This document shows positions 6,865-43,760 of a stretch of DNA of 43,760 bases, in pieces. Under the pieces are notes generated by a model that searched no databases, was not told where the DNA came from, and worked only from the letters and a program-made list of their open reading frames with translations. The stretch is taken from positions 1 to 43,760 of the IMG/VR virus record IMGVR_UViG_3300032250_000760. One strand, written 5' to 3'. How positions within the stretch are numbered: the stretch's first letter is position 1; each line of letters opens with the position of its first letter. The position numbers and the translations under genes are program-made. This DNA is from a virus (lineage: Duplodnaviria > Caudoviricetes).

Positions 6865-7701
6865 ATGTCAAATAACCCATTAACGCAATATTTTAGACAA
6901 CCGGCTGTCTATATCACACTGCCCAGCGAAGGAAAGTACTATCCTGATGGTGCAATTGAGATGCCAGCCAATCGAGAAATTCCAGTGTATCCAATGACTG
7001 CCATTGACGAAATTACTTACAAAACACCCGATGCATTGTTCAATGGCAATGCTGTGGTCAATGTTATCAAGAGCTGTATTCCTGCTATTCGAGATCCTTG
7101 GGGAATACCTGCAATGGACGTTGATACCATTTTGGTTGCCATCCGCATGGCCAGTTACGGCAGTACCATGGAGATCAACACCACTTGCCCGCATTGCAAT
7201 AGCGAAGCTGACTATGGAATTGATCTGCGCAACATTCTTGACAGCATGCGGTCTCCAGACTATTCAAAACCGGTAGTTGATGGAGATTTAGAAATATATT
7301 TTAAACCAATGTCGTACCGAAATCTCAACGAGAACAATCAACGACAGTTTGAAGAACAAAAACTTCTACAGGTACTGCCTGACGCCAGCATGCCTGATGA
7401 TCAACGCATGAGTGCGCTGAGTGCAGCCTTGATGAAAATTACAGAAATCACTGTCAGCGCACTGGCACAAAGTATTGCTGCTGTAAAAACCCCAGACGCA
7501 TTGGTAAATGAACAGGAATACATCGAAGACATGTTGAAAAATTGTGATCGTAGATTGTTTGTTAAGATCAGAGATCACATTGTTAACACAAAACTCAGTT
7601 CCGAAATACAACCATTGAAAATTGCCTGCGGAGAATGCACAAAAGAATACCAACAGGCCATCACATTGGATATGACAAGTTTTTTCGCGGACGCCTCCTA
7701 G
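6865..7701 (+). CDS. gp26: Baseplate hub assembly protein (T4 gp26-like) / tail assembly chaperone
   Basis: YITLPSEGKYY, VYPMTAIDEI, IRMASYG, two CxxC motifs (CPHC, CGEC), C-terminal SFF. Confidence 0.75.
   Translation: MSNNPLTQYFRQPAVYITLPSEGKYYPDGAIEMPANREIPVYPMTAIDEITYKTPDALFNGNAVVNVIKSCIPAIRDPWGIPAMDVDTILVAIRMASYGSTMEINTTCPHCNSEADYGIDLRNILDSMRSPDYSKPVVDGDLEIYFKPMSYRNLNENNQRQFEEQKLLQVLPDASMPDDQRMSALSAALMKITEITVSALAQSIAAVKTPDALVNEQEYIEDMLKNCDRRLFVKIRDHIVNTKLSSEIQPLKIACGECTKEYQQAITLDMTSFFADAS
7680..7686 (+). other. Putative -1 ribosomal frameshift slippery heptamer T TTT TTC
   Basis: In-frame X XXY YYZ heptamer four sense codons before the gp26-like stop; the -1 frame is open to 7916. Confidence 0.65.
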
Positions 7702-7739
7702 TACTAGACTCTGACCAAATTTCCAAATGGATAGACCAA

Positions 7740-7916
7740 ATGGAAAAAGAAAGCAAGGCCATCAAACAAGAGGCGTTAAAAATGGTATGGTACATGCGCG
7801 GAGGCTTGTCATACGAAGCTGCACTGAATCTCAGTTACGACGAGCGTAATGCAGTGTCTGAGATTATCAAAGAAAATTTAGAAACTACTAAAAAATCAGG
7901 ACTACCGTTTTTCTAA
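7740..7916 (+). CDS. gp51-like baseplate hub assembly peptide, probably also expressed as a -1 frameshift extension from 7686
   Basis: MEKESKAIKQEALKMVWYMRGGLSYEAALNLSYDER...; frame open from 7635; weak RBS at ATG 7740. Confidence 0.65.
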   Translation: MEKESKAIKQEALKMVWYMRGGLSYEAALNLSYDERNAVSEIIKENLETTKKSGLPFF

Positions 7917-7925
7917 GAATCAGCC

Positions 7926-8429
7926 ATGGATATTGAACAAGTTAAAAAAGATATAGAACTGTGGATTGCAAACTTCCTAGAAGTCCCACATCCGGCCCTG
8001 GGAGGATTTTCTCCCTGTCCCTATGCACGGTCAGCACGAATAAAGAACAGCTATGCAGTGTACCTTGGAACAGATCCCTACTATGATCTTAAACACCGTG
8101 GCCGACAGGGAATGGGCGACAAAGAAGTTGTTATCTATGTGTATGATCCACGAGAGTGGACACATGATCAGCTGGCCAGCAGCATCGACCTAGCAAATCA
8201 AGAAGTGTTGCTGCCCCGAGACATGCTGGCCCTGGAAGATCATCCCGACGATGTAGAAATGGTCAACGGAGTGTGCATGAATCAAGGCACCTATGCCTTG
8301 GCTCTGGTCCAGAGTCTCAGCGATCTAAACGCCAAGGCTCGACTCATGGCCAACCGAGGATTTTATCACAACTGGCCCGAAGAATATCTAACCGGCCTGT
8401 TTCAACACCGACAGGATCCCAGAACATGA
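7926..8429 (+). CDS. Hypothetical protein, DUF1415-like
   Basis: N-terminal W..FL...PCPYAR, later DHP and LVQ..L..A...L..RGFY..W motifs resemble DUF1415 (CPFA motif). Confidence 0.55.
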   Translation: MDIEQVKKDIELWIANFLEVPHPALGGFSPCPYARSARIKNSYAVYLGTDPYYDLKHRGRQGMGDKEVVIYVYDPREWTHDQLASSIDLANQEVLLPRDMLALEDHPDDVEMVNGVCMNQGTYALALVQSLSDLNAKARLMANRGFYHNWPEEYLTGLFQHRQDPRT

Positions 8430-8860
8430 GCTATCAGTTTGCTAGAATTGATCTTGCCAAGACCAATTACGAAATCAATGTCAAGTGGGAGTATCTGCGC
8501 AATCCCAACATTGCTGAGCTGAATCAGATCTATCGAGACTACTGCAAGTACAAGCACTTTGCGTCGGTAATGCCAATTTTTGACAGCAGATACACAGACC
8601 CAATGACCGATGTGATCGGCTACTACGATGCAGATCGTTTGGTGGCATTTTCACTGATACGACGCTATGACGATCACAATGCATTGTGTGATCAATTTGC
8701 ATGGAATTATAATAGACCCAAAATGAGATTGGGCATCAACACACTACAAGCAGAGTGTGCAATTTACAAAGATCGGGGATTTCGATACTTGTATCTTGAA
8801 CAGGCACATCTATACAAATCTGATATGGATGGCTTTGAAATACTAGGACCACTGGAGTAA
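8426..8860 (+). CDS. Stand-alone aminoacyl-tRNA-protein transferase C-terminal (ATE_C/Bpt-like) GNAT-fold protein
   Basis: Likely start is ATG 8426 (ATGA overlap), not 8273. YYDADRLVAFS...WNY...RLG...LQAECAIYKDRGFRYLYL...YK...GFEIL follows the ATE_C pattern. Confidence 0.6.
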   Translation: MSYQFARIDLAKTNYEINVKWEYLRNPNIAELNQIYRDYCKYKHFASVMPIFDSRYTDPMTDVIGYYDADRLVAFSLIRRYDDHNALCDQFAWNYNRPKMRLGINTLQAECAIYKDRGFRYLYLEQAHLYKSDMDGFEILGPLE

Positions 8861-8862
8861 CT

Positions 8863-9198
8863 ATGGACATTTATACAATTTGGGCAAACAAAGAAGGTGA
8901 CATTTCTGATCTCGACTGGGTCACAGGAATGGAGAGTTTCTTTGATCATTTGGTATCCGAGGGCAAGATGGAAAACTATCGCATCACTAGATGCAAGATG
9001 GGATTCCGTTCAATTGCAGACATGCCGGAATGGATGATCTTGATGGAATTTAAAGACATGGGACAAATGGATTCCGCATTTCGTCGTGTGGCACCGCTGG
9101 AAGGTGAACTGGAAGTCAAACACAAGAGCTTCAATCAGTTTGTCAGCGGAGACATTCAACATGCCCTGTTCCGTGACTGGCCTGACCAAAACTTATGA
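8863..9198 (+). CDS. Hypothetical protein, DUF6614-like (dimeric alpha+beta barrel-like)
   Basis: MDIYTIW..SDLDW..HL..EG....YRITRCKMGF..EW.I..EF....QMD.AF...H..FN....ALFRDWPD; GGAG RBS. Confidence 0.55.
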   Translation: MDIYTIWANKEGDISDLDWVTGMESFFDHLVSEGKMENYRITRCKMGFRSIADMPEWMILMEFKDMGQMDSAFRRVAPLEGELEVKHKSFNQFVSGDIQHALFRDWPDQNL

Positions 9199-9719
9199 AC
9201 ATTCTCGATCATGTACCCATAGTACCTGATTGGCCCAAGCCTGGTGTCAACTTTTTTGATGTAACTGGCATTCTCTCCCAACCCGATGCATTTGATTTTT
9301 GTTGCAGTTGGCTAGAATCTCAAGCACAGCAATACACAGCTACCAGTCTTGTGGCTGTGGAAAGCCGTGGATTTGTGTTTGCTGCTCCTGTAGCTAGACA
9401 GCTGGGCTTGCCATTGATCTTGGTTCGTAAAGGTGGCAAGCTGCCGGGTGCAACAATACAGCACAACTACCAAACTGAGTACAGCACCGACACCATCGAA
9501 ATGCACCCACATGCTCCAGTAGGCACACACCCGTTGATTGTGGATGACCTATTGGCCACTGGCGGAACTATATTGGCAGCAGCTCATTTGATTCGCAGCC
9601 AATGGACCGACGCTGTGATTTCTGCTGCTGTGATCATACACTTAGAGAACTTGCCCGGGGCGGCAGCATTGAATGCCAACAACATCAACTGGACCAGTTT
9701 GATCAACACCAATGAATGA
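9195..9719 (+). CDS. apt: Adenine phosphoribosyltransferase
   Basis: PDWPKPGVNFFDVT, AVESRGF, VRKGGKLPG, Y.TEY, PRPP-binding LIVDDLLATGGT. Confidence 0.93.
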   Translation: MNILDHVPIVPDWPKPGVNFFDVTGILSQPDAFDFCCSWLESQAQQYTATSLVAVESRGFVFAAPVARQLGLPLILVRKGGKLPGATIQHNYQTEYSTDTIEMHPHAPVGTHPLIVDDLLATGGTILAAAHLIRSQWTDAVISAAVIIHLENLPGAAALNANNINWTSLINTNE

Positions 9720-10254
9720 TCTTATATTAATTGCTATCAAGGAAGAAGCACCCAATCTCCAACACATGATGAATGTGTTCTACACCGGAGTTGGCAAGGT
9801 AAATGCTGCCATGACTGCGGCACAGCTGATTGAACGTTATCGACCCAAACGTGTGATCAACCTTGGCACAGCAGGCGGCATCGCTGTGACTGCTGGTCTG
9901 CATGAATGCACTCGTTTTGTACAACGAGATATACGATGCCTAGGACTGGGATGCAGCAATGGCCAAACACCATTTGAAGATGACATTATCTTAACCACTG
10001 GCCCTGTGGGACTTACCTGCAGTACCGGCGATGACTTTGTGATGAACCCAGAACTAGACATTCCAGCAGATCTAGTAGACATGGAAGCCTACGCCATTGC
10101 CAAAGTCTGTCTGCGTAATCGTATTGAATTTAGATGTTTCAAGTACATTACTGATCAAGCAGATCACTCAGCTCATACCACATGGCAAGACGCTGTTTCC
10201 CAAGGCGAAAAATTCTTTGTTGCTAAACTGCAAGAACTTGGCATAACCATTTAA
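9712..10254 (+). CDS. mtnN: MTA/SAH nucleosidase-like (PNP_UDP_1 family)
   Basis: IAIKEE, GVGKVNAA, INLGTAGG, STGDDFV, VDMEAYAIA, KYITDQAD. Confidence 0.88.
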   Translation: MNDLILIAIKEEAPNLQHMMNVFYTGVGKVNAAMTAAQLIERYRPKRVINLGTAGGIAVTAGLHECTRFVQRDIRCLGLGCSNGQTPFEDDIILTTGPVGLTCSTGDDFVMNPELDIPADLVDMEAYAIAKVCLRNRIEFRCFKYITDQADHSAHTTWQDAVSQGEKFFVAKLQELGITI

Positions 10255-10302
10255 GAACTTCTGCGAAGTTCTATTGACTTCGCTCTGCTCGTCAATTTTT
10301 TT
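10254..10302 (+). terminator. Twin hairpins followed by a T-tract; probable terminator at the convergence point
   Basis: agaacttc-tgc-gaagttct (10254-10272); attgac-N12-gtcaat (10273-10296) followed by TTTTTT. Confidence 0.6.
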
Positions 10303-10319
10303 ATCTTCTTCTTCTTTAA

Positions 10320-10663
10320 GTATTATCTAGATTAACTGGTCACAATTCACCGTAAGCACGGTGAACGATGAGCCTAGCATTATCTGAGTAGCCCAGTCAT
10401 CTATCATAATGAGATTGCAGTTTCCTGCGCGGAGGCGGTTGACCGGTACCCCCTACTCAAGCTTCACATATCAACGGAACCCTAGTAACCCGATGTAGAT
10501 CCAAGTCCTATAAGCATGGGTCGTATCTTTTTCAACGGAGCCCAAACCATTTGTTGCCTTAAGTTAGCAATTGCCTTTGACGCCCAAGAATCCGAATATG
10601 GTATTGCACATATCCTCAATGGGGTTGGGCCATGTCACCCAACACAGTGTCGTTAATGCTGCC
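10320..10663 (-). ncRNA. Candidate ~340-nt structured non-coding RNA of unknown class
   Basis: No ORF in the track; dense stems, several with G-U pairs only on the minus strand, a GCAG-GAAA-CTGC tetraloop hairpin, a 7-bp pseudoknot and an internal 12-nt direct repeat (see findings). Confidence 0.7.
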
Positions 10664-11092
10664 TTACAATTTGTTTATAATGTGTGAGCCATGTACACGC
10701 ACTTGTATATGGCCGTTGTAATAATCTCGTGATTCCAATACTTGTCTTGCAAATTGTTCCCGTGCCTCAATGTAACTGCATTCGCTTTTGGATTTACAAT
10801 AGTAAAGTATTTCTCTGGTGAAGTTTTCGGTGCCTAGTTTTTCGATGTCCGAAGTCAATTCTGGGCTTGACCCATAGTACTCTCTCCAGTCTGAGTCGAC
10901 CTTTGATCGTATCTTTTTCTTCTTCTTTGTGCCGTTTTTAAGTTTAACAGTGCGTTGGGTTGTTTTACTAAATTTTGCTAATTTTTTGCCTATGTACTTG
11001 CGTCCAGAAAGATTATTTGTAATCAAGTAGACAAAGCCCACACAATCTTCGGGTAGAGTTTCAATCGGTTGATTGTTGTAAAGCCATGTCAT
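10664..11092 (-). CDS. Single-domain GIY-YIG nuclease (T4 Seg/EndoII-like)
   Basis: GFVYLITN...GRKYIGKK, WREYYGSS, NFTREIL, conserved Glu in YIEAREQF, YYNG; lysine-rich insert KNGTKKKKKIRSK. Confidence 0.85.
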   Translation of the reverse strand: MTWLYNNQPIETLPEDCVGFVYLITNNLSGRKYIGKKLAKFSKTTQRTVKLKNGTKKKKKIRSKVDSDWREYYGSSPELTSDIEKLGTENFTREILYYCKSKSECSYIEAREQFARQVLESRDYYNGHIQVRVHGSHIINKL

Positions 11093-11101
11093 CCAACATA
11101 C

Positions 11102-12199
11102 TTAGTTGGTCAACCACCCGACTGCATAGTTTTGATCCACAACTTGACATTTGCACTTTTGTTCACATTCCACCCAGGCCTTGTCTGGGTTGTCAAATGT
11201 GTCAAAGAGTTTGTTCCAAATTGGATTATCTAGGACTTCGCGTAAGGTGTGTGTCTTTAAATTCAGTTGATCTCGGTGTTGTTGATGGAAGCTGTCTTTG
11301 AAATTGATTGTTTTTCTATCTGTGCTCAATGCAACATATGGAAAACTTACCCAACTGCATGGATGTAATACTCCGTCTGCACTTACGTAGAGTCCTCGAT
11401 TTCCAATTGAACACATGGGTGTGATAAATTGATCGTGCTGTTGTTTGATTTTGATATATTGTTGTTGGTTGTGTGCCAGGTATGATTGATTGAGCTGCTG
11501 CCGGTCTGAGAGTTGTATAAAGTGTCGTTCGTAGCGGTGCGACGAACTTATAAATTCTGCTCGAGGTTCCAACACATCGTGTTGTCCACCATATGCGTTG
11601 CCATATTTGCTGCCAAACTTGGTACTGTAGGTAAGTTGAACACCGTCGCAGCCTATGTTGCGAGCTTGTTGTTGAATGGAATCTAGATGATCTTGATTGA
11701 ATGAAAATACAATACTCGCCCAGTAAACATGCGCCGAGCTTTCTTGACACATGATTTTCATACCAGTCATAATAGAATCCCAGTCACTGCCAATTCTATA
11801 TAGATTGTTAGTGTCGTGCGTGTGACCATCGACACTGAAGTTGATGGTGTCATACTCATTTGAAATTTTAGCAAACTCTCTCCACCAAGACTCTTTACGG
11901 TAGCTGCCATTGGTTATGGTATACACATGAATTTTGGGATTGTGCATTTTGATATAACCGACAATTTCCAAATACTCACTGGCATATATAGGATCGCCAA
12001 TATCACCACACATGGTAATGCGTTGAACTTGCGTTTTTAACAACTCAGGAGGCAACACACGTTTGAAAAAATCTAGATCAAGTTCTTTGTTCAGCCATGG
12101 AACAGGATCAGTGTCGTTTCGTGGACAACGAGGACACTTTAATGTACATTTTGCACTGACTTCAAAGTGCCAGTGGTATAGTTGCCACGGATAATTCAT
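11102..12199 (-). CDS. Radical SAM enzyme with SPASM/twitch-like C-terminus
   Basis: CTLKCPRC (CxxxCxxC), CGDIGDP, ITNGS, FSVDG; C-terminal C...YVSADGVLHPC and CEQKC. Confidence 0.9.
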   Translation of the reverse strand: MNYPWQLYHWHFEVSAKCTLKCPRCPRNDTDPVPWLNKELDLDFFKRVLPPELLKTQVQRITMCGDIGDPIYASEYLEIVGYIKMHNPKIHVYTITNGSYRKESWWREFAKISNEYDTINFSVDGHTHDTNNLYRIGSDWDSIMTGMKIMCQESSAHVYWASIVFSFNQDHLDSIQQQARNIGCDGVQLTYSTKFGSKYGNAYGGQHDVLEPRAEFISSSHRYERHFIQLSDRQQLNQSYLAHNQQQYIKIKQQHDQFITPMCSIGNRGLYVSADGVLHPCSWVSFPYVALSTDRKTINFKDSFHQQHRDQLNLKTHTLREVLDNPIWNKLFDTFDNPDKAWVECEQKCKCQVVDQNYAVGWLTN

Positions 12200-12798
12200 G
12201 GGCTCACTTCAATTATTTTTATAGATTTATCAAACAACACTGACACAATTTTGTCCACTGCGTGATCGGTTGTTTGATGAGGATGTTGATAAACATCCAC
12301 ATAGCGTTCTGGATATTTTGCATATCGATTGTTGTTGAAATTGGTTTTTGTCAGTCCTAACCTAACTTCAAGTAGATCAACACTGGGATATTCTATCCTC
12401 AACATATTTCCAAATTCTTCCAACGCTTTTTTGCTTAGACTGTAAATTAAATCATTTGGATAATATCGATTGTTGTTGGTACTGGTGATATTCACAATCT
12501 TGCAGTGAATATTTTTTTGCAATGCTTTCTTTGAAAGCAGTACCGGTGATATCAAATTAACATTTAAAATCTCAACAGCATCATTCACGTCGTGATTGAT
12601 CAAGTCCACTTTGCCGCCAACTCCGGTGGCCGCACAATTTATCAGCATGTCGTACTGCTCGATATTGTAGTTAATCACTGCAGGAATATTTGAAAGATCC
12701 AAGTCGGCACGTGATAATCCACTGACGTTGTGATGGGATAATCTTTTCAACAGCGACTGACCTACGCCGCTAGATGCGCCAGTGATTAGAATTTTCAT
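12196..12798 (-). CDS. Short-chain dehydrogenase/reductase
   Basis: ILITGASSGVG, LINCAA, IVNITS, catalytic YSLSK (YxxxK). Confidence 0.9.
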   Translation of the reverse strand: MKILITGASSGVGQSLLKRLSHHNVSGLSRADLDLSNIPAVINYNIEQYDMLINCAATGVGGKVDLINHDVNDAVEILNVNLISPVLLSKKALQKNIHCKIVNITSTNNNRYYPNDLIYSLSKKALEEFGNMLRIEYPSVDLLEVRLGLTKTNFNNNRYAKYPERYVDVYQHPHQTTDHAVDKIVSVLFDKSIKIIEVSP

Positions 12799-14558
12799 GC
12801 CAATTCTATGTCCGTGTTGTAGCTAGTAAAGCCATTCTCTTTTATCACTTTAAGAATGTTCTCTACACGACCTGCAAGTTCATCTCTATGACTCACAAGC
12901 CAGATTGATTTGTGTCGTTCACGGCTCATTTTCTTCAGCAGAGCCAAGGCATTTTCTACACCCTGTGTATCAAGTCCGTTGTCAATCAGTTCGTCAATAA
13001 ACAACAGGTTGATGGGCGAGTACAGGCTTTCCCATACATCGCGGAATGCCCAACTCATACTCAAGATCAAGCGGTTACGTTCGCCACGTGATAGGTTGTC
13101 AAAGTCCAGTTCACGGCCTAGTTCTTCGATGCTCACAGTGAGATCGTTTTGAAACTTCACAGTGTGTGGCAATCCAATACGATCCAGATAGTGCGTGAGT
13201 CGTTGATTCAAGTAACTCAGATTCTGATCAATGATTTTCTTACGTACAAAACTATCCTTACTGGTCAATAGTTTAAGCAAAAAGTCTTGATGATCCTGCA
13301 GGCGAGTGAGCTCGTTGATTGTGTCATAGCTTACAGTTTGCAAGGCCTGCCGTTGCATTTCCTCAATCTGTTCTGCATAGGGATTAACTTCGGCTGATCG
13401 AGTAGCAAGATCTTTGCGCAAGGTTTCTACGCTGTTGCGATGATTCAGCGCCATTTCTAAGCTGTCGTAAAACACAGTGGGTGCAGGTCCTAGAGTGCCC
13501 AACACAGACAAGGCGTCAAGATGTTCTATTCGTTGAGTATCATTGGCCAACAACTGCAATGCAGTTTCTTTCAGCGTGGACTCTTTGGCAGCTTTGATTT
13601 CGTCCTGCTTGTGGTCGTGTAGATCCTGTCCACAGGCGTAGCACTTGTGTTCATCCAAGGACTCAAGTTCTTTTTTGATTTTTTCAAACAGACGATTCAG
13701 TTTGATATCGTCTGCCTCGATACTGCGAATCCAACGATTGGCTTCGTCAATGGCTTTCTTTTTGACATGAAATGATTCCAAGTCTCGGTGTGCTTGTACT
13801 TCAGCATCAATATCAATGTGTTCAAGATCTGCAATGGCCTGTGTGAGCTTGGTCACATCTTCGTTGCGTTTGCTGATCCATAGTCGCTCACGTTTGCGTA
13901 GACTTTCAATCTGTTCTTCAATTCGAACATTGGCCTCTTGCAGGGCTCGAATACGAAATTCTTCCTGCGCAATACTGTCTTTGGTCTGTCGATTCAGTTC
14001 TTTGATACGATCTGCACGTTCACTCAATTGTGTAATGCCCAACAACTGTTCGATAATGGTACGTTGTTCATTGGACTTCAAGCTCAAGAACGGCTCAGTA
14101 TAGGTATTCAAAGCCAGCACATGTTTGAACATGTCGTGGCTCATGTTCATGATGCGTTCGATAGCATCCTGTGTTTCGCGGCTGTCGCCCTGTGCTTCGT
14201 CAGTGGCTGCTTGTGCTTCGTGATTTACAAAGAAACGCAACACATTGGGCTTGCGTCCACGTTCGATTCGATATTCTTGATTGTTCACCACAAAGTCCAA
14301 ACTGACCAACATGCCTTTGCCATTGGTTTTGTTTACAAGATTATCTTTGCGAATGTTGCTCAGGGCATTGCCGTACAAGGCATAGCTCAAGGCATTGATG
14401 ATGGTGGTCTTGCCGGTGCCGTTACGTGACCCGTCTCCGCCCAGGTCTAAGTTTTCGCCCAAGACCAAAGTAAGGTCGCTACGATCAAAATTGATGGCCT
14501 GTGTGGTATTGCCCACACTCATAAAATTTCGAACAGTTAAATTTTTAATTTGAATCAA
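12795..14558 (-). CDS. gp46: Recombination endonuclease ATPase subunit (gp46, Rad50/SbcC-like)
   Basis: RNFMSVGN, Walker A NGTGKTT, coiled coil with CYAC zinc hook, signature LSRGE, Walker B LFIDE, VSH; TTG start with GGAG RBS. Confidence 0.95.
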   Translation of the reverse strand: MIQIKNLTVRNFMSVGNTTQAINFDRSDLTLVLGENLDLGGDGSRNGTGKTTIINALSYALYGNALSNIRKDNLVNKTNGKGMLVSLDFVVNNQEYRIERGRKPNVLRFFVNHEAQAATDEAQGDSRETQDAIERIMNMSHDMFKHVLALNTYTEPFLSLKSNEQRTIIEQLLGITQLSERADRIKELNRQTKDSIAQEEFRIRALQEANVRIEEQIESLRKRERLWISKRNEDVTKLTQAIADLEHIDIDAEVQAHRDLESFHVKKKAIDEANRWIRSIEADDIKLNRLFEKIKKELESLDEHKCYACGQDLHDHKQDEIKAAKESTLKETALQLLANDTQRIEHLDALSVLGTLGPAPTVFYDSLEMALNHRNSVETLRKDLATRSAEVNPYAEQIEEMQRQALQTVSYDTINELTRLQDHQDFLLKLLTSKDSFVRKKIIDQNLSYLNQRLTHYLDRIGLPHTVKFQNDLTVSIEELGRELDFDNLSRGERNRLILSMSWAFRDVWESLYSPINLLFIDELIDNGLDTQGVENALALLKKMSRERHKSIWLVSHRDELAGRVENILKVIKENGFTSYNTDIELA

Positions 14559-17003: not shown

Positions 17004-18017
17004 TCAGAGTGTTTGGTAGATTTGCAACAGCAACCGATTGTCGTAGAACTCTGATTCAATGTTGGTGAGTTGATCTGTTACAATTTGATCAACTGATTCA
17101 AATTTTACATCGCCAGGCGCCATGTCTGTGTCAACTGCTGAATTTTTAATATTTATTAAGGCCATTTCTCTCAGCCCATAAGTTTTAATAAACGTTTCTT
17201 TGATGAAATTGGCTTCTTCATAAGAGATTTCAATATCCAGTTGTACTCGCACATGCATGTCTTTGGCCAATACAGTGGCAGCGTTGTCAATCACATTGCT
17301 GAGACCCAACACACGATAGCGTGGCTGTGCAGGCCAAGCATGAAACTCCGGTGCCTGACCCCACTCTAAGATCATCATGCCACGTTCATCGTCGCCGGCA
17401 TCGGCGTAGTTGTGTGGAAAGCAGTTGCCAATGTAGGTGATGTTTCGTTTGGTTTGTCGCTTGTGAAAGTGACCGGTAAACACATGTTCAAAATTGTTGA
17501 AGTCTTCTCTGCGTACCGAGCCGTGGTCCGGCATCTCTACCATGGCATTCATCAAGTAGCCGGGCAGTTCAAAGTGCCCAAACATGTATTTGCCCGTTAG
17601 TTTTGGAATACGTTTATGATCGTCTCCGCAGAGCCAAGGAGCAATGACCACGTTGCCACTAGAGAACCAATCGTTACATATGACCACATTCGGAAGATGT
17701 TTAGCCCACTCCACGCTTTGTATATCACGTTTATCGCGATAATATAGATCGTGGTTGCCAGGGATAAAATAAACAGTGTCAAAATTTGCATTCATGTGCT
17801 CCAATGCTTGTAGGCTGTAGTTCAGGGTAACAATGTTTAAACTGGCTCGATTGTTGTGCCAGTCGCCCAGGAACAGGCAGGTTTCACAACCCTCTTCGCG
17901 GGCCTTGGCCGTGGCCCATTTCACAAAGGCCAAACAGTCTTCGTTGTGCAAAACCGAATTGGACTTGAGTCCAAAATGAATGTCAGTGAATACAGCAGCT
18001 TTTTTAAATAGATTCAT
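17004..18017 (-). CDS. gp47: Recombination endonuclease nuclease subunit (gp47, Mre11/SbcD-like)
   Basis: Metallophosphoesterase motifs TDIHFG, LGDWH, PGNHD, GHFE, TGHFH. Confidence 0.95.
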   Translation of the reverse strand: MNLFKKAAVFTDIHFGLKSNSVLHNEDCLAFVKWATAKAREEGCETCLFLGDWHNNRASLNIVTLNYSLQALEHMNANFDTVYFIPGNHDLYYRDKRDIQSVEWAKHLPNVVICNDWFSSGNVVIAPWLCGDDHKRIPKLTGKYMFGHFELPGYLMNAMVEMPDHGSVRREDFNNFEHVFTGHFHKRQTKRNITYIGNCFPHNYADAGDDERGMMILEWGQAPEFHAWPAQPRYRVLGLSNVIDNAATVLAKDMHVRVQLDIEISYEEANFIKETFIKTYGLREMALINIKNSAVDTDMAPGDVKFESVDQIVTDQLTNIESEFYDNRLLLQIYQTL

Positions 18018-37900: not shown

Positions 37901-40765
37901 ATGGCAGCCCTGAATCTAGACGACACCAGTCAAGTCAATTTGTACAAACAGTTCATTGGCAGCAAAGGCACCATACTGAGTGCAGAAATCTTCACTGGGG
38001 CCAACCTAGGCAAAGAAGCTGCAGATTATCAAATTTACGAAAACTGGGCAGTACGCCGTGGCACCTATGGTGCAAATGCAAACCGCAGTTATGTTGAGTT
38101 GAGATTGAATGAAGCACTGTTGCAAAGTGATCCTTCAACAGTGCAGGTGATAGAACCCGGTGAATCAAGCCTGGCCAATCAGACCATACTGCTGAATGAT
38201 CTGTGGCGAGAAAGTTATAAACTAACGTCTCCTGACTTCTTGACCACTACCACTGTCACTGTGACTGACACTGTGTTGCCCACTGCTGGCTATGTCAATG
38301 TTGACGATGTTGATATAACAGTGTTTTCTTTAGATGATCCCAGCAACATTTCTGCTGCTATCGACAGCATTGGCAATGGTACAAGAATCTGGGTAGCAAA
38401 AACCAACAGCTTTGATTGGAACGTGTACCGTGCCACACAAGTCACTGGACAAGTTACTCGTGTCACTGACAACCTTGATGGCACCAGTCTAGTAACATTT
38501 ACAGAGATACACGACCGAGCACCAGGAGATCTACTGATCATCAGATACTTTGATGCATCAGTTGACGGTGTGTATCGTGTTCTCAGCACTCCCAAGCCGA
38601 CCACTCTTACCATTGCATATGAATTCCCCAATGGCAATCAAACTGCTATAAACGGATCAGGACTGGCATTTTATCTTGATACCATGCGTGTGGCCCAGGC
38701 CAGTGATGTTGGTACACTCTCTTATGCCAACGACTTGACACCGGGTGCATTGGCCTGGGTTGACAACAACGGTGCTGGTCAATGGGAAGTACTGGAAAAA
38801 CAAAACGTTTTTGCTCCTAGCTATTCACTTGATTCAGCTGCCTCAATTAACAATTCTGGATACGGCACCAGTATTGCACAAGCATACGAAAATATTGCAG
38901 CACTGGTAGGAGCTCCAGGGTACAGCGTCACTGGTGGAATATATCCTTATCTACGTGGGCGAGACAACACCTACCAAGAAAATCCAATACTGCAACTGTC
39001 TGCGCCTGACACCTTGGGCTACGGCAGCGCATTAGATATTGGATATCAATCCTGGGCCATTGCTGGTGCGCCGCTCAGTCGCAGCGGCGCTGGCTATGCG
39101 GCAATAATTTATAGAGCACCTGCCAGCAATGTATTTTTGCAAACACAACTGCTGATTGCACCGGACCATGCACTCAGTGCAGGCAGTTTTGGTTCCGCAG
39201 TGGTCATCAGCAAAGACGAACGATGGGCGTATGTTGGCGCACCTGCTCAAAATGCAGTGTATGCATACGGTCGTGTAGACGAAGAAATTCAGCAGGTAAA
39301 CTACGTTGGCGACGGTGTTACTTCATCATTCAACTACATTGACAATCTCAATTTTGATCTAGCACAGCCTGGACAGATATCTGTGTTGGTCAACACCACA
39401 CTGCAAAGCTACGGAGTTGACTATACACTAAGCGCAACAGCAGTGGTGTTTAACTCTGCACCGTTTAAAGATTTGCCAATTACCATAGTGCGCAATATGG
39501 AGGCAAAATTTGCAGGCACTGGAACTAGAGCTACCTTTGATCTGGCACCAGTGCTGTACACAGCTACCAACATTGATGCATTTAGTGTCACAGTCGGCGA
39601 TATTTTACAGCGTCCGCACATGGACTATACCTTTGTTGGAACTGTGTTGACTTTTACACCTTCTACTATTCCAGCATCGGGCAGTACAGTTACAGTTTTA
39701 GCCGGCACACATTTCAAACATCTGGGCACAATTACTGGTCCAACAGGATCTCGTTTCGGTACAAGTGTAGCAACAGCTACTGACGGTCGACAAATAATAA
39801 TTGGCGCACCAAGAAAGTCCAACAGCGGATTGATTTCCGGCAGCACCTATGTGTATGATCGTAGCGTGTTACGCTATCAAGTGGGCATTGGCGAAACCGC
39901 AGTGAAAACTTTTGCATTGCCTACCGGATATGCACAACCAGTGTCGGTCTTGGTCAACAATCAGTTCTTAGAAAACAGCGATCAAATCTTAGGTGGTCAA
40001 TTCACTGTGACCGGTGGTCAAGTGGTGTTAGGCAGCAATTTGACACTGTCAGTGGGCGACATAATTGAAATTGAAAGCAACATATTACAAGCAGTACAAG
40101 AGATCACAATCAAAACTCCGTTTGACGAAGCACAATTTGGCACCGCAGTGGACATGTGTTCAAACAATTGCAGTGTATACAGCGGTGCACCAGCTGACGG
40201 CAAGGTCTACATTGGCGCTGGCAGTGTACAACGAAATGTAAATCAAGCACGAGTGTATGGAGTAATAACATCAACTGTTGCAAACCCTGTGCTGACTGTT
40301 GGTGACACCTTGCGTGTTGACAATTACGAAATTGCAGTTCCGGCCAACTATGTCAACAATGGAGTATCTTTACCCGGCAACAATGTTGCTGGACTAGCCA
40401 GCGCCATCAACGCAGCCAATGAAGGTGTTGGTGTTCCCAATGTTCGTGCCACAGTGTCCGATGATCTTTTCTTTGTTGGCGATGACGTTACAAAAACATT
40501 TGACATTGGCGTGACCTATTCGCAGTGCGCCAGCTACAACACTGTGGTCTATGTTGGCAATGTGTTGAAAACGGTCAATGTTGACTATACCTACAACAAC
40601 ACCGCAGGCGTCATTTCTTTTATTGTTCCACCTCGTAGTGGCGCTCGTATACGGGTAGTTTCAGGAATCTTAACTTTAAGTGTCATCAACTCTGCCGCTG
40701 CATTGACAACATCAAAACTGGAAGTGTTGCCTGGTGTAATTGGCACAGCATTCAGCGACATATGA
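31940..40765 (+). CDS. Giant virion structural protein (baseplate wedge/fibre-like), part 1, ending at an in-frame TGA
   Basis: 2941 aa after gp6; LPEIFQT, DKFVNYSQYYWLP; beta-rich modules; FG-GAP-like repeats (FGSAV..VGAP). Confidence 0.8.
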   Translation: MAKVRTVDFLPEIFQTSTNKQFLSATLDQLVQEPKFKKTQGYVGRRVGPGVNADDKYVVEPTDSRTDYQLEPGVVFRKIDSDAVKDVVTYPGITDALSTQGAVVDQSERLYTSEYYTWDPQIDFDKFVNYSQYYWLPDGPLAVSVGGTTIPIQAEYTVTRTNGVYNFSGYIGDNPTLTLLRNGNYTFNVAQNSKETVNYRVTASSTASYIIDYMPNPALTLVRGNTYVFNLNLDVVSPFWIKTAPTQGRTDPYNTGVSRNGANTGNITFTVPQDAPDTLYYASETQFNMQGQLTIVDGTPGTGPGFWIQAEPGVDGVLPWSPNISSRDVLGVINNGEDLGTVEFDVPLSTAQSFYYGLTSIGSVDLATNLTFSQINNVFVSEFFANYPTGIDGITNLDGRTVVFLNTSNDVDADSWENISQYDPLLPGQQGLGGFDTTTFAQAVPLSQNQRYSVWQINYVTTSGGQQYIQLTESRSVTNLEKFTIAFGIQYSNTGWYKNASGYFEEIPLLTAVKDVLYYQDGTDPGIFGQIRLLDQTNATTTYISDIIGKPNYISSNGVTFTNGLKVQFRGTTVPAEYENQEYYVEGVGTAIRLLPVGNFITPEPFTQNSPVPYDSLPFDIGNYDYTLNMPLLPEYLTINRASPDLNAWSRGNRWFHIDVITAAAAYNNTVPVLNNLQRAKRPIIEFYAGTQLYQFGSQGIQPVNIVDFEETDAMSNINGSLGYSVDGYSFVQGTRVIFAADTNPQVRNKVYEVTFIKPDTQSPIIAQPIINLVPAADAEALVNQTVVNLNGLTQQGISYYFDGVEWKYAQQKTKTNQAPLFEVYDSAGVSFSDTTKYPSTTFAGTKLFSYAVGTGVADTVLGVPLRYLSLNNIGDIVFDNNFYTDTFIYVVGNTAITENVSAGFAYQYSNRVAYERQLGWKVGATPSLIRQQFQFTYDGSPLRFNIAIPENSVVPAMQLYVGSKFVLPSEYTVTRTSTTTTVVLNNIYTPGSIIEVQVLSNQPSDNGFFQVPINLANNPFNVNSPDFTLGTVRSHYESIAQNLINFAGDINGPNNTRDLGNIGRYGTVILQQSAPMTLAGFFMRSSEYNVFKSLEFNDREYNKFKNRMLENAIRSEWGTMTTSEILDSIVTDLNTGKTNLNSFFYSDMLPSSNVYTDTVYTVSPITTGTFNTLQTYDFTSANFLGLLVYLNDRLLTLNYDYTVSSDSPLITVTVALSVGDTVTVREYATTTGNFVPNTPTKMGLYAAYKPEMFLDENYVRPIMVIRGHDGSITAAFGDIRDDILLEFEHRIFNNLKTEGNPVPLTPEEVIPGYFRTTDYTQQEITTILGESFLTWIGQNKIDYKTQQYLADNAFTYNYSQAGDKEKNLPLLGAWRGISRYFYDTLNPNYTPWEMLGFSQQPTWWETRYGPAPYTQDNLVLWDDIQAGFVADPDGPYVDPRFVRPNLSTYFIPTGTEGQLLAPINSVVGQYDPNAWRKSWVVGDGGPAEAAWWTSSSYPFAVMRLLALTRPAKFFSLFADRDLYKYNTEFDQYLYNGRYRLDANGVQVYGGHINAVTGAVIPVSKASYINWIVDYNQQLGINSTLTLEAVLSNLDVRLCWRTGSFTDKQYLKIYTERSSPNSLNSSLLLPDESYDLMLYKNSPFSSVAYSAVIVQITDAGYAVLGYSTTDPYFNIFASRANGQLQTVSAGGSTVRVPKQYTNDIVQVPYGFVFANQSSVVDFLLSYGEYLKYQGMVFDTRENGYTLDWKQMANEFLYWANQGWNTNSLINLNPAAIQLTAERPGAVVDNITVQNPENMLLDQNRTPFDARNLIIERLENRFTVTSANNQSIAYAKIQFVSYENLVVLNNVSIFADLIYNPATGARQNRVYVTAFTTTEWNGTLDAQGFVLNQDNVQLWAPNRKYAKGEIVNYKNNYWSAQSIIQPKLEFAYADWVKSDYTKIQKGLLPNIANKADQLANSYDTQTANLESDNDLLSYGLIGFQPREYMAALNLDDTSQVNLYKQFIGSKGTILSAEIFTGANLGKEAADYQIYENWAVRRGTYGANANRSYVELRLNEALLQSDPSTVQVIEPGESSLANQTILLNDLWRESYKLTSPDFLTTTTVTVTDTVLPTAGYVNVDDVDITVFSLDDPSNISAAIDSIGNGTRIWVAKTNSFDWNVYRATQVTGQVTRVTDNLDGTSLVTFTEIHDRAPGDLLIIRYFDASVDGVYRVLSTPKPTTLTIAYEFPNGNQTAINGSGLAFYLDTMRVAQASDVGTLSYANDLTPGALAWVDNNGAGQWEVLEKQNVFAPSYSLDSAASINNSGYGTSIAQAYENIAALVGAPGYSVTGGIYPYLRGRDNTYQENPILQLSAPDTLGYGSALDIGYQSWAIAGAPLSRSGAGYAAIIYRAPASNVFLQTQLLIAPDHALSAGSFGSAVVISKDERWAYVGAPAQNAVYAYGRVDEEIQQVNYVGDGVTSSFNYIDNLNFDLAQPGQISVLVNTTLQSYGVDYTLSATAVVFNSAPFKDLPITIVRNMEAKFAGTGTRATFDLAPVLYTATNIDAFSVTVGDILQRPHMDYTFVGTVLTFTPSTIPASGSTVTVLAGTHFKHLGTITGPTGSRFGTSVATATDGRQIIIGAPRKSNSGLISGSTYVYDRSVLRYQVGIGETAVKTFALPTGYAQPVSVLVNNQFLENSDQILGGQFTVTGGQVVLGSNLTLSVGDIIEIESNILQAVQEITIKTPFDEAQFGTAVDMCSNNCSVYSGAPADGKVYIGAGSVQRNVNQARVYGVITSTVANPVLTVGDTLRVDNYEIAVPANYVNNGVSLPGNNVAGLASAINAANEGVGVPNVRATVSDDLFFVGDDVTKTFDIGVTYSQCASYNTVVYVGNVLKTVNVDYTYNNTAGVISFIVPPRSGARIRVVSGILTLSVINSAAALTTSKLEVLPGVIGTAFSDI

Positions 40766-43760
40766 TTTCTAAACTATGCATACACTCAAACTATAACAAG
40801 TCCTTACCCAACCCTAGGCGCAAACTTTGGTGCTGAAGTGTTTGTCGGCTCTGAAACAGTCAATTTAGTAGTGGGCGCACCCAACGGCAATCTGTACCAG
40901 CCAGTGACATTTGACAACAACCAGACCTACTTTGATGATCGCAGCACAGTGTTTTCCACTGTTTTAGTACAGAGCGGAGTAACATACACATATGACTATC
41001 TACCCAGCTCAACTGACTCAGTTGCTAATCCTGGGCAGTTTGTGTTTGGTCAACAAATGTACGACAGCGACATTGTTGAATTGGATCGCTACGGCACCGC
41101 TGTCAGCTATGTTACTGGAAGACTGTTGATTGGTTCGCCCGGCAGTGATCTTGGTGACAGCAGCGCCAATTATGGACGAGTCAGCGTGTTTGAAAATGCC
41201 AATAGAACGCCGGCCTGGACAGTGAAACACATACAGCAACCAGTGGTTGATATCACCTTGCTGAATTCCATCTACATGTATGATAAATTGCAATCCACAA
41301 TTACATCTTACTTGGATTTCATTGACCCGTTGCAGGGAAAAATTCTTGGTGTTGCAAGAGAAAACATTGACTATATTGGCGCAGTAGATCCTGCAAACTA
41401 CAACAACGGTCCAGTACACAATGTGGGCAATCCATGGGGCCAGTCAAAAGTGGGACAAATTTGGTGGGACACAAACCTGGTGCGATTCATTGATCCAAAC
41501 CAGGACGACATTGTGTACGCCAGTCGCAGATGGAGTCAAGTATTCCCTGGCAGCAGTGTGGACATTTACCAATGGATTGAAAGTGATGTGACTCCTGCCA
41601 ACTACACAGGTCCAGGAACACCATTGAGTGTAGTGAGCTATACCACACGCTCAGAACTCAACATCGACAACATTTTTGCCACTCGTTACTATTATTGGGT
41701 GCGCAACATAGCCACTGTAAACACTGTAGCTGGCAAAAAACTCAGCACAACTGCCATTGCCAACTACATAGAAAATCCACGAGCCAGTGGTATCTCTTAT
41801 TTGGCCGCATTGAACGCCAGCACAGTGGCAGTGTACAATGTGAATGCATTGATTTCTGCACAAGACACAATCTTGCACATTGAATATGATCGTATCAAGA
41901 ACGACGACAATGTGCATCAGGAATACGAACTGATTGCCGACGGGGTAGCTGACAGTTTCTTAAGTGCAAACTTGTATTTAAAACTGCAAGACAGTCTCAG
42001 TGGAATCAACTTGATTGGCGCATCTGTGCCAGATACATCTTTGAGTCCAGCAGAACGATATGGCGTTGAGTTTAGACCTCGACAAAGCATGTTCGTTGAT
42101 CGATTCGCTGCGTTGAAAAACTACCTTGGCTATGCTAACCGAGTATTGGCAAATTATCCAATCACAGAAACCAAGAGTTTTGCTCTGCTCAACAGTAGAG
42201 AACCTGAACCAGCGGCTGGCAGCGGTGCTTGGAATCTACGTGTTGCTGATTTAACTGAACTGAGTTATCAAAATCTAGCGTTGGTTTCAATTGGCTATCG
42301 ATATCTAGTGGCAACAGACTCCAGCAATTCAGGATTCTGGACCATATATCAAGTCACAGCCGGCACACTGGTTGGCAGCAAAGAACTAACACTGATCCGT
42401 GTGCAAAATTACGACACCAGTCGTTACTGGAGTTACATCAACTGGTACGCACCTGGCTACGACAGCACACTAAATCCTGTTGCAACTGTTGCCAACTATG
42501 CTGGCCTGTCAGAGCTGACACTAACGGTGGCACCAGTTGGTTCCAGTGTCAAAGTATCAAACTCGCAAATAGGCAAGTATGAAATCTATCAGCGCACTCT
42601 ACTTGGCTGGGACCGAGTAGGACTAGAAGACGGCACCATTGAGTTCAGTGCCGCTTTATGGGATTATGCCATTGGCAAATTTGGATTTGATTCCGAAGTG
42701 TTCGATGCACAGTACTATGATCAAGAACCTGTAATCGAAACACGTAAAATTATCCAAGCAATTAACCAGCAGTTGTTCATCGATGAATTGGCTATCAATC
42801 GAAATCGCGCATTGATTTTGATGTTTGAATTTATCATGAGTGAATTTTCTGCACCGGACTGGTTGATAAAAACCAGTTTGATTGATGTTGATCACAAGAT
42901 TCGTGACCTAGTACCGTATCAGTCCTATCGTCAAGACAACCAGGACTTTGTGCTGAATTACATACAAGAAGTCAAGCCGTATCACACACAGATTCGCGAG
43001 TTTAATCTGTCCTACAACGGTGCTGATGCTTATCCTGGCATGATGACAGACTTTGACGTCCCTGCGTTTTATGACACCAGTCTAGTTGTGCCGCAATTTA
43101 TCAGTCCTGTGCTGTTGCCGTATACTGGCTCAACGGCCAACAGTAAAAGTAACCCCAATGCTGACACTGATGCTACTGCTATTATCTGGACAGAAAATCC
43201 CTGGAACGAGTGGTACAACAATTATCTACTGAGTGTGCAATCGGTGGTCATAACCAATCCTGGCCAAGGCTATACTACAGCACCAGAAGTTGTCATCACA
43301 GGAGACTGTGTGGTTCCGGCAGCAATGACTGCGGTAATCAATAGTGCGGGTCAAGTGGTAAGAGTTGATATTGACAGCTACGGTAGCGGATACCTCACAA
43401 CTGCAATAATAACTTTAGTCGGTGGCAACGGCAACGGTGCCACAGCTTCTGTCGTAATGGGCAATAGCCTGGTTCGTCAACTCAAGACCACAATAAAATA
43501 CGACAGATATCAGTATTCATCCAACATTGTTGAATGGCAAGCTAATGTTCTATATGATGACGGCACGCTGGTTAGGTATGCAGACCGTGTATGGCAAGCA
43601 GACAGTGGCGATAGTTTCGGAGTTCAGAGCGCCACGTTTGATCCATTCCAGTGGTTAGAGGTAAATGCCGGTACCTTAACCGGGGTTGACCGTACCATGG
43701 GCTTCTATGCTCCTACTGTCAATCAACCCGGACTGAGTCTGCCTCTGTTGATTGACAGTA
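40766..43760 (+). CDS. Same-frame continuation of the giant structural protein, partial at the window end (absent from the ORF track)
   Basis: Translated by hand: 998 stop-free codons FLNYAYTQTITSP...FGAEV...VVGAPNG...GQIWWD...EVKPYHTQIRE...; first in-frame ATG at 41057 has no clear RBS. Confidence 0.85.

Follow-up and report, generated by a model that had tools for sequence, protein, structure and literature searches.

Compact nuclease genes that adjoin a structured RNA are known from the OMEGA systems (IscB and TnpB) and from HEARO. RNA also starts replication in ColE1, where, according to the accessible portions of two papers, a stretch of RNA pairs with the template DNA and forms a persistent hybrid that primes replication (PMC4412123, PMC5043065). 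The former describes the origins of T4 as R-loop-based too, with a transcript that enters an unwinding region, and the primosome assembly site (pas) is described in the available part of PMC5778457 as a fork-like hairpin. The Polynucleobacter-1 motif (RF01718) was reported from 16 representatives by Weinberg et al. (2010; PMC2864571) and tabulated there as possibly cis-regulatory; a supplementary drawing includes part of what we call below the central domain, marked 65% and ‘pseudoknot?’. The accessible text of that paper gives no function for the motif, on which its descriptive supplement may say more. The supplements of PMC10690425, a source available in part, list more than ten thousand viral RNA candidates, and the element that we describe here may be among them. 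Our literature search returned no account of the full-length element, its matched repeats or the islands that carry it, although the supplements of PMC2864571 and PMC10690425 may hold more.

The window (the whole stretch of DNA analyzed, 43,760 nucleotides) represents 43.8 kb of the genome of a giant, T4-like lake phage and carries genes for a portal, a head protease, a late sigma factor and a baseplate hub. Its complete relatives measure 330–355 kb, and the closest cultured gp46 proteins, at 52% identity, belong to PA5oct-like Pseudomonas phages. The first-pass annotation singled out a 409-bp gap at 10255–10663 as unusual and free of open reading frames. It is indeed the largest of the window’s 30 gaps, the remaining ones being 111 bp or shorter, but the strict absence of reading frames does not hold, as two ORFs (45 and 46 codons) overlap the gap. 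The surrounding positions 10071–11200 were recovered in an independent assembly with a single difference. The gap lies where two convergent operons meet, flanked by the following genes:

10664–11092, minus strand: SegE-type GIY-YIG nuclease of 142 amino acids, a single catalytic domain (PF19835, E 1.3e-34; phrog_447)
12795–14558, minus strand: gp46/SbcC-like recombination ATPase, which anchors the synteny upstream
17004–18017: gp47-like gene, labeled from sequence motifs
6865–7701, plus strand: baseplate hub gene, which heads the convergent operon and serves as the downstream syntenic anchor

Several features of the setting deserve mention in their own right. The baseplate-hub ORF (6865–7916, plus strand) is overlapped by a short second ORF in a different frame, and the plus-strand stretch 7926–10254 forms a cargo cassette that encodes a 167-amino-acid protein of unknown function, a DUF6614 protein, a phosphoribosyltransferase and a nucleosidase. 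At the far end of the window, the frame of a 2941-amino-acid ORF ends at 40765 and coding-looking sequence continues from 40766 to the end of the contig at 43760, where no plus-strand ORF that starts with ATG, GTG or TTG and exceeds 88 amino acids is listed; a frameshift, read-through or an ORF open at its end are possible explanations. A permuted tmRNA and many tRNAs occur in both complete relatives (G001:110821-111310; G003:328174-328753), a form that we take to indicate an alpha- or betaproteobacterial or cyanobacterial host. A scan of the window for tRNA and tmRNA genes returned none.

Folding energy did not set the gap apart: the minus strand folds at chance level (z 0.31; 57 of 100 shuffles were equally stable), and neither strand gave a signal against shuffles. 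A comparison of homologues was therefore needed. Using the nuclease as bait (73–94% identity), we collected 80 viral loci. The pattern of the 3′ core is present in 70 of them; seven have too little flank, and two of the three that remain were matched by blastn. From the window together with an alignment of 32 sequences of its class, we derived a 61-pair structure with these parts, listed from 5′ to 3′ along the RNA-like strand:

10318–10651, minus strand: structured RNA-like element of about 335 nt, its ends placed from conservation
10579–10651, minus strand: 5′ multi-helix domain (P1–P4), occupying the place of the RF01718 domain of a sister class
10483–10570, minus strand: middle helices P5–P7, with 3/3, 3/4 and 7/10 compensatory pairs
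10410–10475, minus strand: central domain with nested helices P8, P9 and P11 and a GUUG/CAAC pseudoknot, common to the RF01718-bearing class
10379–10389, minus strand: repeat A, in which a variable 7-mer (here AGAUAAU) comes after a fixed ACUC
10346–10365, minus strand: hairpin P12, between repeats A and B
10322–10332, minus strand: repeat B, in which the 7-mer of A recurs after a fixed AUCU

Across the 32 homologues, 97.5% of the cells of this structure are paired and 33 of the 61 pairs are compensatory. None of 500 shuffles reached 33 compensatory pairs, and pairing dropped to 36–47% in slid controls. The pseudoknot formed by GUUG (10472–10475) and CAAC (10438–10441) is invariant in the window’s class and covaries in the sister class, whose 45 sequences show equally strong covariation overall. 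Within helix P8, UGAG covaries with CUCA at 10410–10413 (UA in 18 sequences, AU in 13, GC in one), and the 5′ domain contains a UGNRA-type loop at 10601–10608, which is presumably T-loop-like. These data support a conserved, covarying and pseudoknotted RNA-like element. The first-pass annotation was right in its choice of the minus strand as the structured one. All the stems and both 7-mers that it described are present exactly where it had put them, and four of its hairpins are kept in the 32 homologues: 10625–10642 (5/5 pairs compensatory), 10431–10453 (100% paired), 10417–10428 (4/4 pairs compensatory) and 10346–10365 (P12, 95.7% paired). Its longer-range pairings are not supported. The pseudoknot that it drew between 10385–10391 and 10453–10459 has no compensatory pair among seven, with three pairs broken in 14, 18 and 9 of the 32 sequences; the UGAG assigned to this pseudoknot is the one that takes part in helix P8. 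Pairing in the long closing stem amounts to 76.5%, and 24 of the 32 homologues break one of its pairs and 28 another.

Contigs from RNA libraries of four studies contain the element region, although DNA may be present in such libraries, and one of these contigs covers nuclease and element together at about 98.5% identity, which as a contig cannot show transcription. Because these data are contigs, they carry no information on ends, strand or level, and the low cover of the 3′ domain is uninformative. We considered several known RNA types. Weak plus-strand matches to C/D-box snoRNAs (E 2.8–8.8) are at chance level, and the D box is not conserved; resemblances to RNase P, group I and II introns, TIGR arrays and k-turns, judged by eye, were dropped, as there was no Rfam match and a G-to-C variant of the repeat abolishes the GA pairs. 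One 145-kb viral contig carries two copies of the element (L309 and L331), with neither nuclease nor gp46 within 3 kb of either.

The element has described relatives. The Rfam check advised by the first-pass annotation gave no match to RF01718 in the window (141-position model; at the gathering score or up to E 10) and none to the OMEGA or HEARO RNAs. RF01718 is, however, matched by eight sister-class loci over their first 140 nt (59–122 bits); among the 26 loci scanned, none of the other classes matches it. A profile of 45 elements of this sister class (class 2) matches the window at 10316–10468 with 56.9 bits (E 9e-17), compared to a best score of 5.2 bits on three shuffled windows. The window is thus homologous to the remainder of the RF01718-bearing elements, namely the central pseudoknot domain and the 3′ module, which together make up its 3′ 150 nt. 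By homology, then, the element belongs to the Polynucleobacter-1 family as a divergent member. Because its 5′ end lacks an Rfam match while its 3′ 150 nt match the RF01718-bearing class, we read it as a modular variant in which a different 5′ domain is joined to a shared core. The claim that the RNA is undescribed is only partly true, since sister-class members carry RF01718. When cultured phages or plasmids were searched by blastn with three classes of the element, nothing meaningful was returned.

In 153 of 157 distinct loci, across 13 sequence types, repeats A and B of the 3′ module carry the same variable 7-mer. A count of 206 of 211 loci is inflated by 41 loci from a search in which the last base of both repeats was set in advance, and hence we used the smaller set. 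The spacing from A to B is 47–68 nt (211 loci), and a short variable linker lies 3′ of repeat A. On trees built per class with the repeats excluded, changes in A mirror changes in B: the counts in A and B are 5/5 and 12/13 for the first base, 5/5, 6/6 and 3/3 for the fifth, and 1/0, 7/7 and 3/3 for the last. As the patterns used to find phage loci restricted the repeat alphabet, the identity test was redone on a class of bacterial islands with the repeats left unconstrained. There, positions 1–7 are identical in 98, 102, 102, 103, 103, 104 and 97 of 104 loci, against 60–71 matches expected at positions 1–4 if A and B were independent (n = 104). The island repeats have unrelated sequences, and a tree of 61 rows implies 6–10 changes at each variable position; in two island loci (L359 and L363), A and B differ at two positions. 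In chance matches to the pattern in genomes, A and B differ in 20 of 21 cases, and in each of two genomes of about 350 kb the pattern occurs once, at the element.

The sequence of the repeat is free, yet identity of the two copies is forced. The simplest explanation is pairing of one copy with the strand complementary to the other, namely the template strand of the DNA. The complement of the repeat occurs elsewhere in the RNA in only 1 of 126 cases. Wobble differences point weakly in the same direction: A has G where B has A in two phage and four island loci, with the reverse in L256 and one contrary C/T case, which would favor RNA of A on the template of B. In such a duplex, the fixed flanks ACUC and AUCU mismatch at two positions. 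DNA contigs, which drop rare forms, show neither a 57-nt skip nor a go-back between A and B. We rejected A and B as promoters, given that the window holds only two copies and their spacing is too short.

Beyond repeat B, three further features complete the locus:

10296–10317, minus strand: A-rich, low-GC spacer, a possible unwinding region
10274–10295, minus strand: GA-GC-loop-GC-GAA hairpin, resembling the ColE1 motif at position 1332
10254–10272, no strand assigned: perfect 8-bp hairpin after the tail motif, whose minus strand forms a C-GCA-G triloop

Across homologues the spacer between B and the tail motif averages 72% A+T, with a median of 42 nt from B to the motif, which is present in 126 of 156 loci. 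The arrangement GA-GC-loop-GC-GA shows a strand preference, occurring on the RNA strand in 112 of 150 loci, on the other strand in 35 and in a control stretch in 8. The terminal hairpins carry C-GNA-G loops in 75 of 150 cases, and the C-GCA-G triloop is unusually stable in DNA. In ColE1, the strict form of the motif, GAGC-N-GCGA, has a single match, at position 1332, which we take to lie past the origin and to be part of the pas. Read on the plus strand, the stem at 10274–10295 precedes a T run and could thus end the opposing operon. GC skew in two complete genomes does not switch at the element; rather, it tracks the coding strand. A motif like the T4 late promoter precedes the RNA in 8 of 166 loci, six of them in islands. 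RNase H (PF00075) is absent from five genomes of the clade, so that a priming RNA would need an RNase H of the host or an unrelated enzyme. In the cultured phage Phosso, a 1-kb gap occupies this slot and an annotated RNase HI directly follows it. Largely non-coding gaps of 0.8–1.5 kb with hairpin-rich ends lie beside the resolvase in PA5oct (L488:7520-9030), Phosso (L489:7910-8925) and GAP32 (L491:7151-7956); these three gaps contain no repeat pattern and no Rfam or profile match.

The element is not confined to phages. A scan of species genomes gave 42 matches, of which 13 lie on phage-like contigs, 8 are copies in Rhodobacteraceae and 21 were judged to be chance. The carriers include Nereida ignava CECT 5292 and Rhodovulum bhavnagarense DSM 24766. 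In the Rhodobacteraceae, where 3 of 401 family genomes carry it, the islands around the element are low in GC and encode two integrases as well as a clamp-loader-like ATPase of the T4 type (phrog_168, E ~1e-23). RF01718 itself occurs in 18 of 151 genomes sampled from the genus Polynucleobacter, and all 19 loci of that genus with enough flank run on into the repeat module, the first six repeat bases being identical in 15 of the 19 (by eye). The islands L484:9138-15904, L486, L487 and L336–L339 are low in GC or phage-like; this family, known from Polynucleobacter and Rhodobacteraceae genomes, combines large and small tyrosine recombinases with the T4-type ATPase and the RNA. In metagenome island loci, a DUF6641-like gene, which marks the Polynucleobacter form of the islands, lies upstream in 49 of 49 and a small tyrosine recombinase downstream in 47 of 48; the neighbors of the element otherwise vary, and the nuclease is found in none of 104. 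The hairpin tail stays attached in phages and islands alike, and a search with the island pattern hit no viral contig. Neither initiator, primase nor helicase was found among the island proteins scanned, and several proteins of 240–290 amino acids without a family could be initiators. The islands are possibly satellites of T4-like phages. A conserved ATAAATA, which we take to resemble a T4 late promoter, immediately precedes the island RNA, about 350–365 nt ahead of repeat A, in six loci (L239, L242, L243, L244, L292 and L294). A similar motif stands in front of structural genes in the window. Phage infection may turn on the island RNA.

These features bring to mind a pre-primer of the ColE1 kind, in which repeat A, the upstream copy, would anchor an R-loop by pairing with the template strand of repeat B; we give this reading about an even chance. 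The element would be transcribed at the end of the gp47–gp46–nuclease operon. As the polymerase passed repeat B, hairpin P12 would set repeat A of the RNA beside B, and RNA A would pair with the template strand of B, so that any sequence would work as long as A equals B. The tether would then seed a persistent R-loop in the A-rich spacer, from which the RNA end would prime leading-strand synthesis, or hairpins on the displaced strand would load a primosome or helicase. In bacterial islands, the same RNA would provide an origin that requires no initiator protein. A replication primer that acts in cis is, at about even odds, the most likely role of the element as a whole; the ornate 335-nt fold is more than such a primer obviously needs. 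Among the options that the first-pass annotation had offered (a ribonucleoprotein, a ribozyme or an origin-priming RNA), the origin-priming RNA is the best supported.

The first of these options made the element the RNA subunit or guide of the adjacent GIY-YIG nuclease. The protein is, as had been claimed, a lone catalytic domain: besides its match to PF19835, its fold superimposes on the I-TevI catalytic domain (Z 8.5, rmsd 2.6 Å, 84 residues), a relationship that came from this direct comparison, as Foldseek and a PDB sequence search returned no GIY-YIG relative. The catalytic fold and the conserved Tyr, Gly, Glu and Asn of the superfamily are all present, with Y22, Y33, G35, K36, E109 and N126 invariant among 20 homologues, and the lysine-rich basic insert is conserved and predicted to lie within a beta-hairpin. 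The family occurs in 506 phage records, and PHROGs (phrog_447) and many phage records label it ‘NAD synthetase’, where Pfam and the fold indicate a GIY-YIG nuclease. An RNA-guided nuclease would agree with this conserved basic hairpin, with the RNA-library contig that spans nuclease and element, with similar collection-wide estimates for nuclease and element (about 3200 and 2900 stretches) and with an RNA-first search, which placed the nuclease no more than 3 kb away in 58 of 61 phage loci with a full upstream flank, and once downstream (L086). But the association is loose. In at least eight loci the slot of the nuclease is filled by a PD-(D/E)XK protein, and the four of these scanned match phrog_244 (a RusA-like resolvase) and PF24608; nuclease and element lie more than 1 kb apart in 10 of 70 loci; and the islands do without the nuclease altogether. 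Moreover, the element keeps a fixed, single-copy position, family members in the three cultured phages that we opened are followed by no comparable long gap, and no column of the nuclease alignment tracks the repeat (best mutual information 0.19–0.32, entropies 0.8–1.0). Thus, the obligate linkage of the OMEGA type is lacking, and we regard a ribonucleoprotein with this nuclease as very unlikely. In the four complete genomes that carry the GIY-YIG gene, phrog_244 is absent, and Endonuclease_7 occurs in one of five genomes. Annotated resolvases directly follow gp46 in PA5oct, Phosso and GAP32, there on the opposite strand, and in a Vibrio phage a hypothetical gene follows gp46 with no long gap. 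Because Holliday-junction resolvases also hold the slot, the GIY-YIG protein is likely to be an exchangeable branched-DNA nuclease of the phage rather than a partner of the RNA.

Other readings of the element place its function in the RNA or in the repeats themselves. A free structured RNA that acts in trans (as a scaffold, decoy or ribozyme), with A and B as twin sites for a partner encoded elsewhere, would suit the ornate fold with its GNRA and T-loop-like loops and the recovery of the region in RNA libraries, DNA being possible in them. Each of the dozens of mirrored changes in A and B would then require a third, matching change in the partner, however, and the retention of a hairpin tail with DNA-type loops in both phages and islands would be puzzling, which leaves this reading rather improbable. 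Free sequence with forced identity is also the signature of tyrosine-recombinase overlaps, and A and B might be crossover or strand-exchange sites (for recombination, resolution or packaging) that require identity over about 7 bp. The small recombinase beside the island loci and the resolvases of the upstream phage slot would fit, but PF00589 is absent from four complete phage genomes, sites 57 bp apart are probably too near for an ordinary excision circle, and the 335-nt fold would be left unexplained; we hold this to be distinctly unlikely. Some defense reverse transcriptases and telomerase jump on their templates, and direct repeats around a hairpin would permit the realignment by which jumping from A to B could synthesize repeats; against the fixed flank of B, a DNA copy of A even has fewer mismatches than arise in the R-loop duplex. 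Against this, RVT_1 is found in none of four complete genomes and not among the island proteins scanned (a divergent enzyme could escape), and the unit length of 47–68 nt bears no relation to a reading frame, so that template jumping is very doubtful. The junction of two operons, the hairpin and T run on the plus strand and the tabulation of RF01718 as possibly cis-regulatory in the accessible part of PMC2864571 would all agree with a cis-acting terminator, antiterminator or insulator. Such a role is highly improbable in our judgment, as the element follows its operon on the 3′ side in most phage loci and is bordered by varied genes in islands, and as the forced identity of A and B would be left unexplained.

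If the primer interpretation is correct, a motif left without a function since 2010, and present on an estimated 2900 viral contig stretches, would gain one, and a structured-RNA origin would exist outside the ColE1-type plasmids, governed by the simple rule that A must equal B. Because the element occurs in culture-collection genomes, this rule is testable without an uncultured phage. The slot swap, for its part, predicts a resolvase role for the widespread phage family that PHROGs labels ‘NAD synthetase’. More tentatively, and on balance doubtfully, one may picture a large clade of T4-like jumbo phages that starts replication from a ribozyme-sized RNA, tethered to its own template by a self-matching 7-nt repeat of free sequence, with the Polynucleobacter and Rhodobacteraceae islands as satellites that borrow the phage replisome through the same RNA origin and a T4-type clamp-loader subunit; Polynucleobacter-1 would thereby gain its function.

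Compared with known systems, the locus resembles OMEGA and HEARO in having a compact nuclease gene beside a structured RNA, and differs in the fold of the nuclease, the lack of obligate linkage and the fixed single-copy position in phages. The nuclease shares the GIY-YIG catalytic fold and residues with T4 SegE and I-TevI but has no DNA-binding tail, and it keeps a conserved position in a resolvase slot. Like the Ssn nucleases (cd10448), as far as the available part of PMC11893778 describes them, it is a small single-domain protein close to hairpins; unlike there, the full hairpin tail is not repeated across the genome, and the other copies of the short motif in the complete relatives G001 and G003 stand without flanking stems (by eye) rather than forming many target hairpins. 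With Polynucleobacter-1, the window shares the 3′ 150 nt of the sister-class phage elements, which themselves start with RF01718, and the RF01718 loci of Polynucleobacter genomes run on into the same repeat module and tail; the window’s 5′ domain, by contrast, folds differently and lacks an RF01718 match, and the motif as drawn in 2010, in the accessible figure, ends before the repeats and tail. The T4 origins oriF and oriG, as far as the consulted part of the literature goes, belong to the same kind of phage and likewise have a transcript that runs into an unwinding region, but they combine a promoter with an unwinding element, whereas here an ornate fold with repeats takes that place and we identified no dedicated promoter. 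Finally, the element has no sequence similarity to ColE1 RNA II (three profiles, nhmmer, no match), its anchor would be a 7-mer of free sequence about 57 nt upstream instead of a G tract, and its carriers are lytic jumbo phages and integrative islands. What it shares with RNA II is a folded RNA-like element of several hundred nucleotides, here recognized from covariation, a GAGC-GNA-GCGA motif on the RNA-like strand and a stretch that, judging from the identity of A and B, would be able to pair with a downstream site on the template strand.
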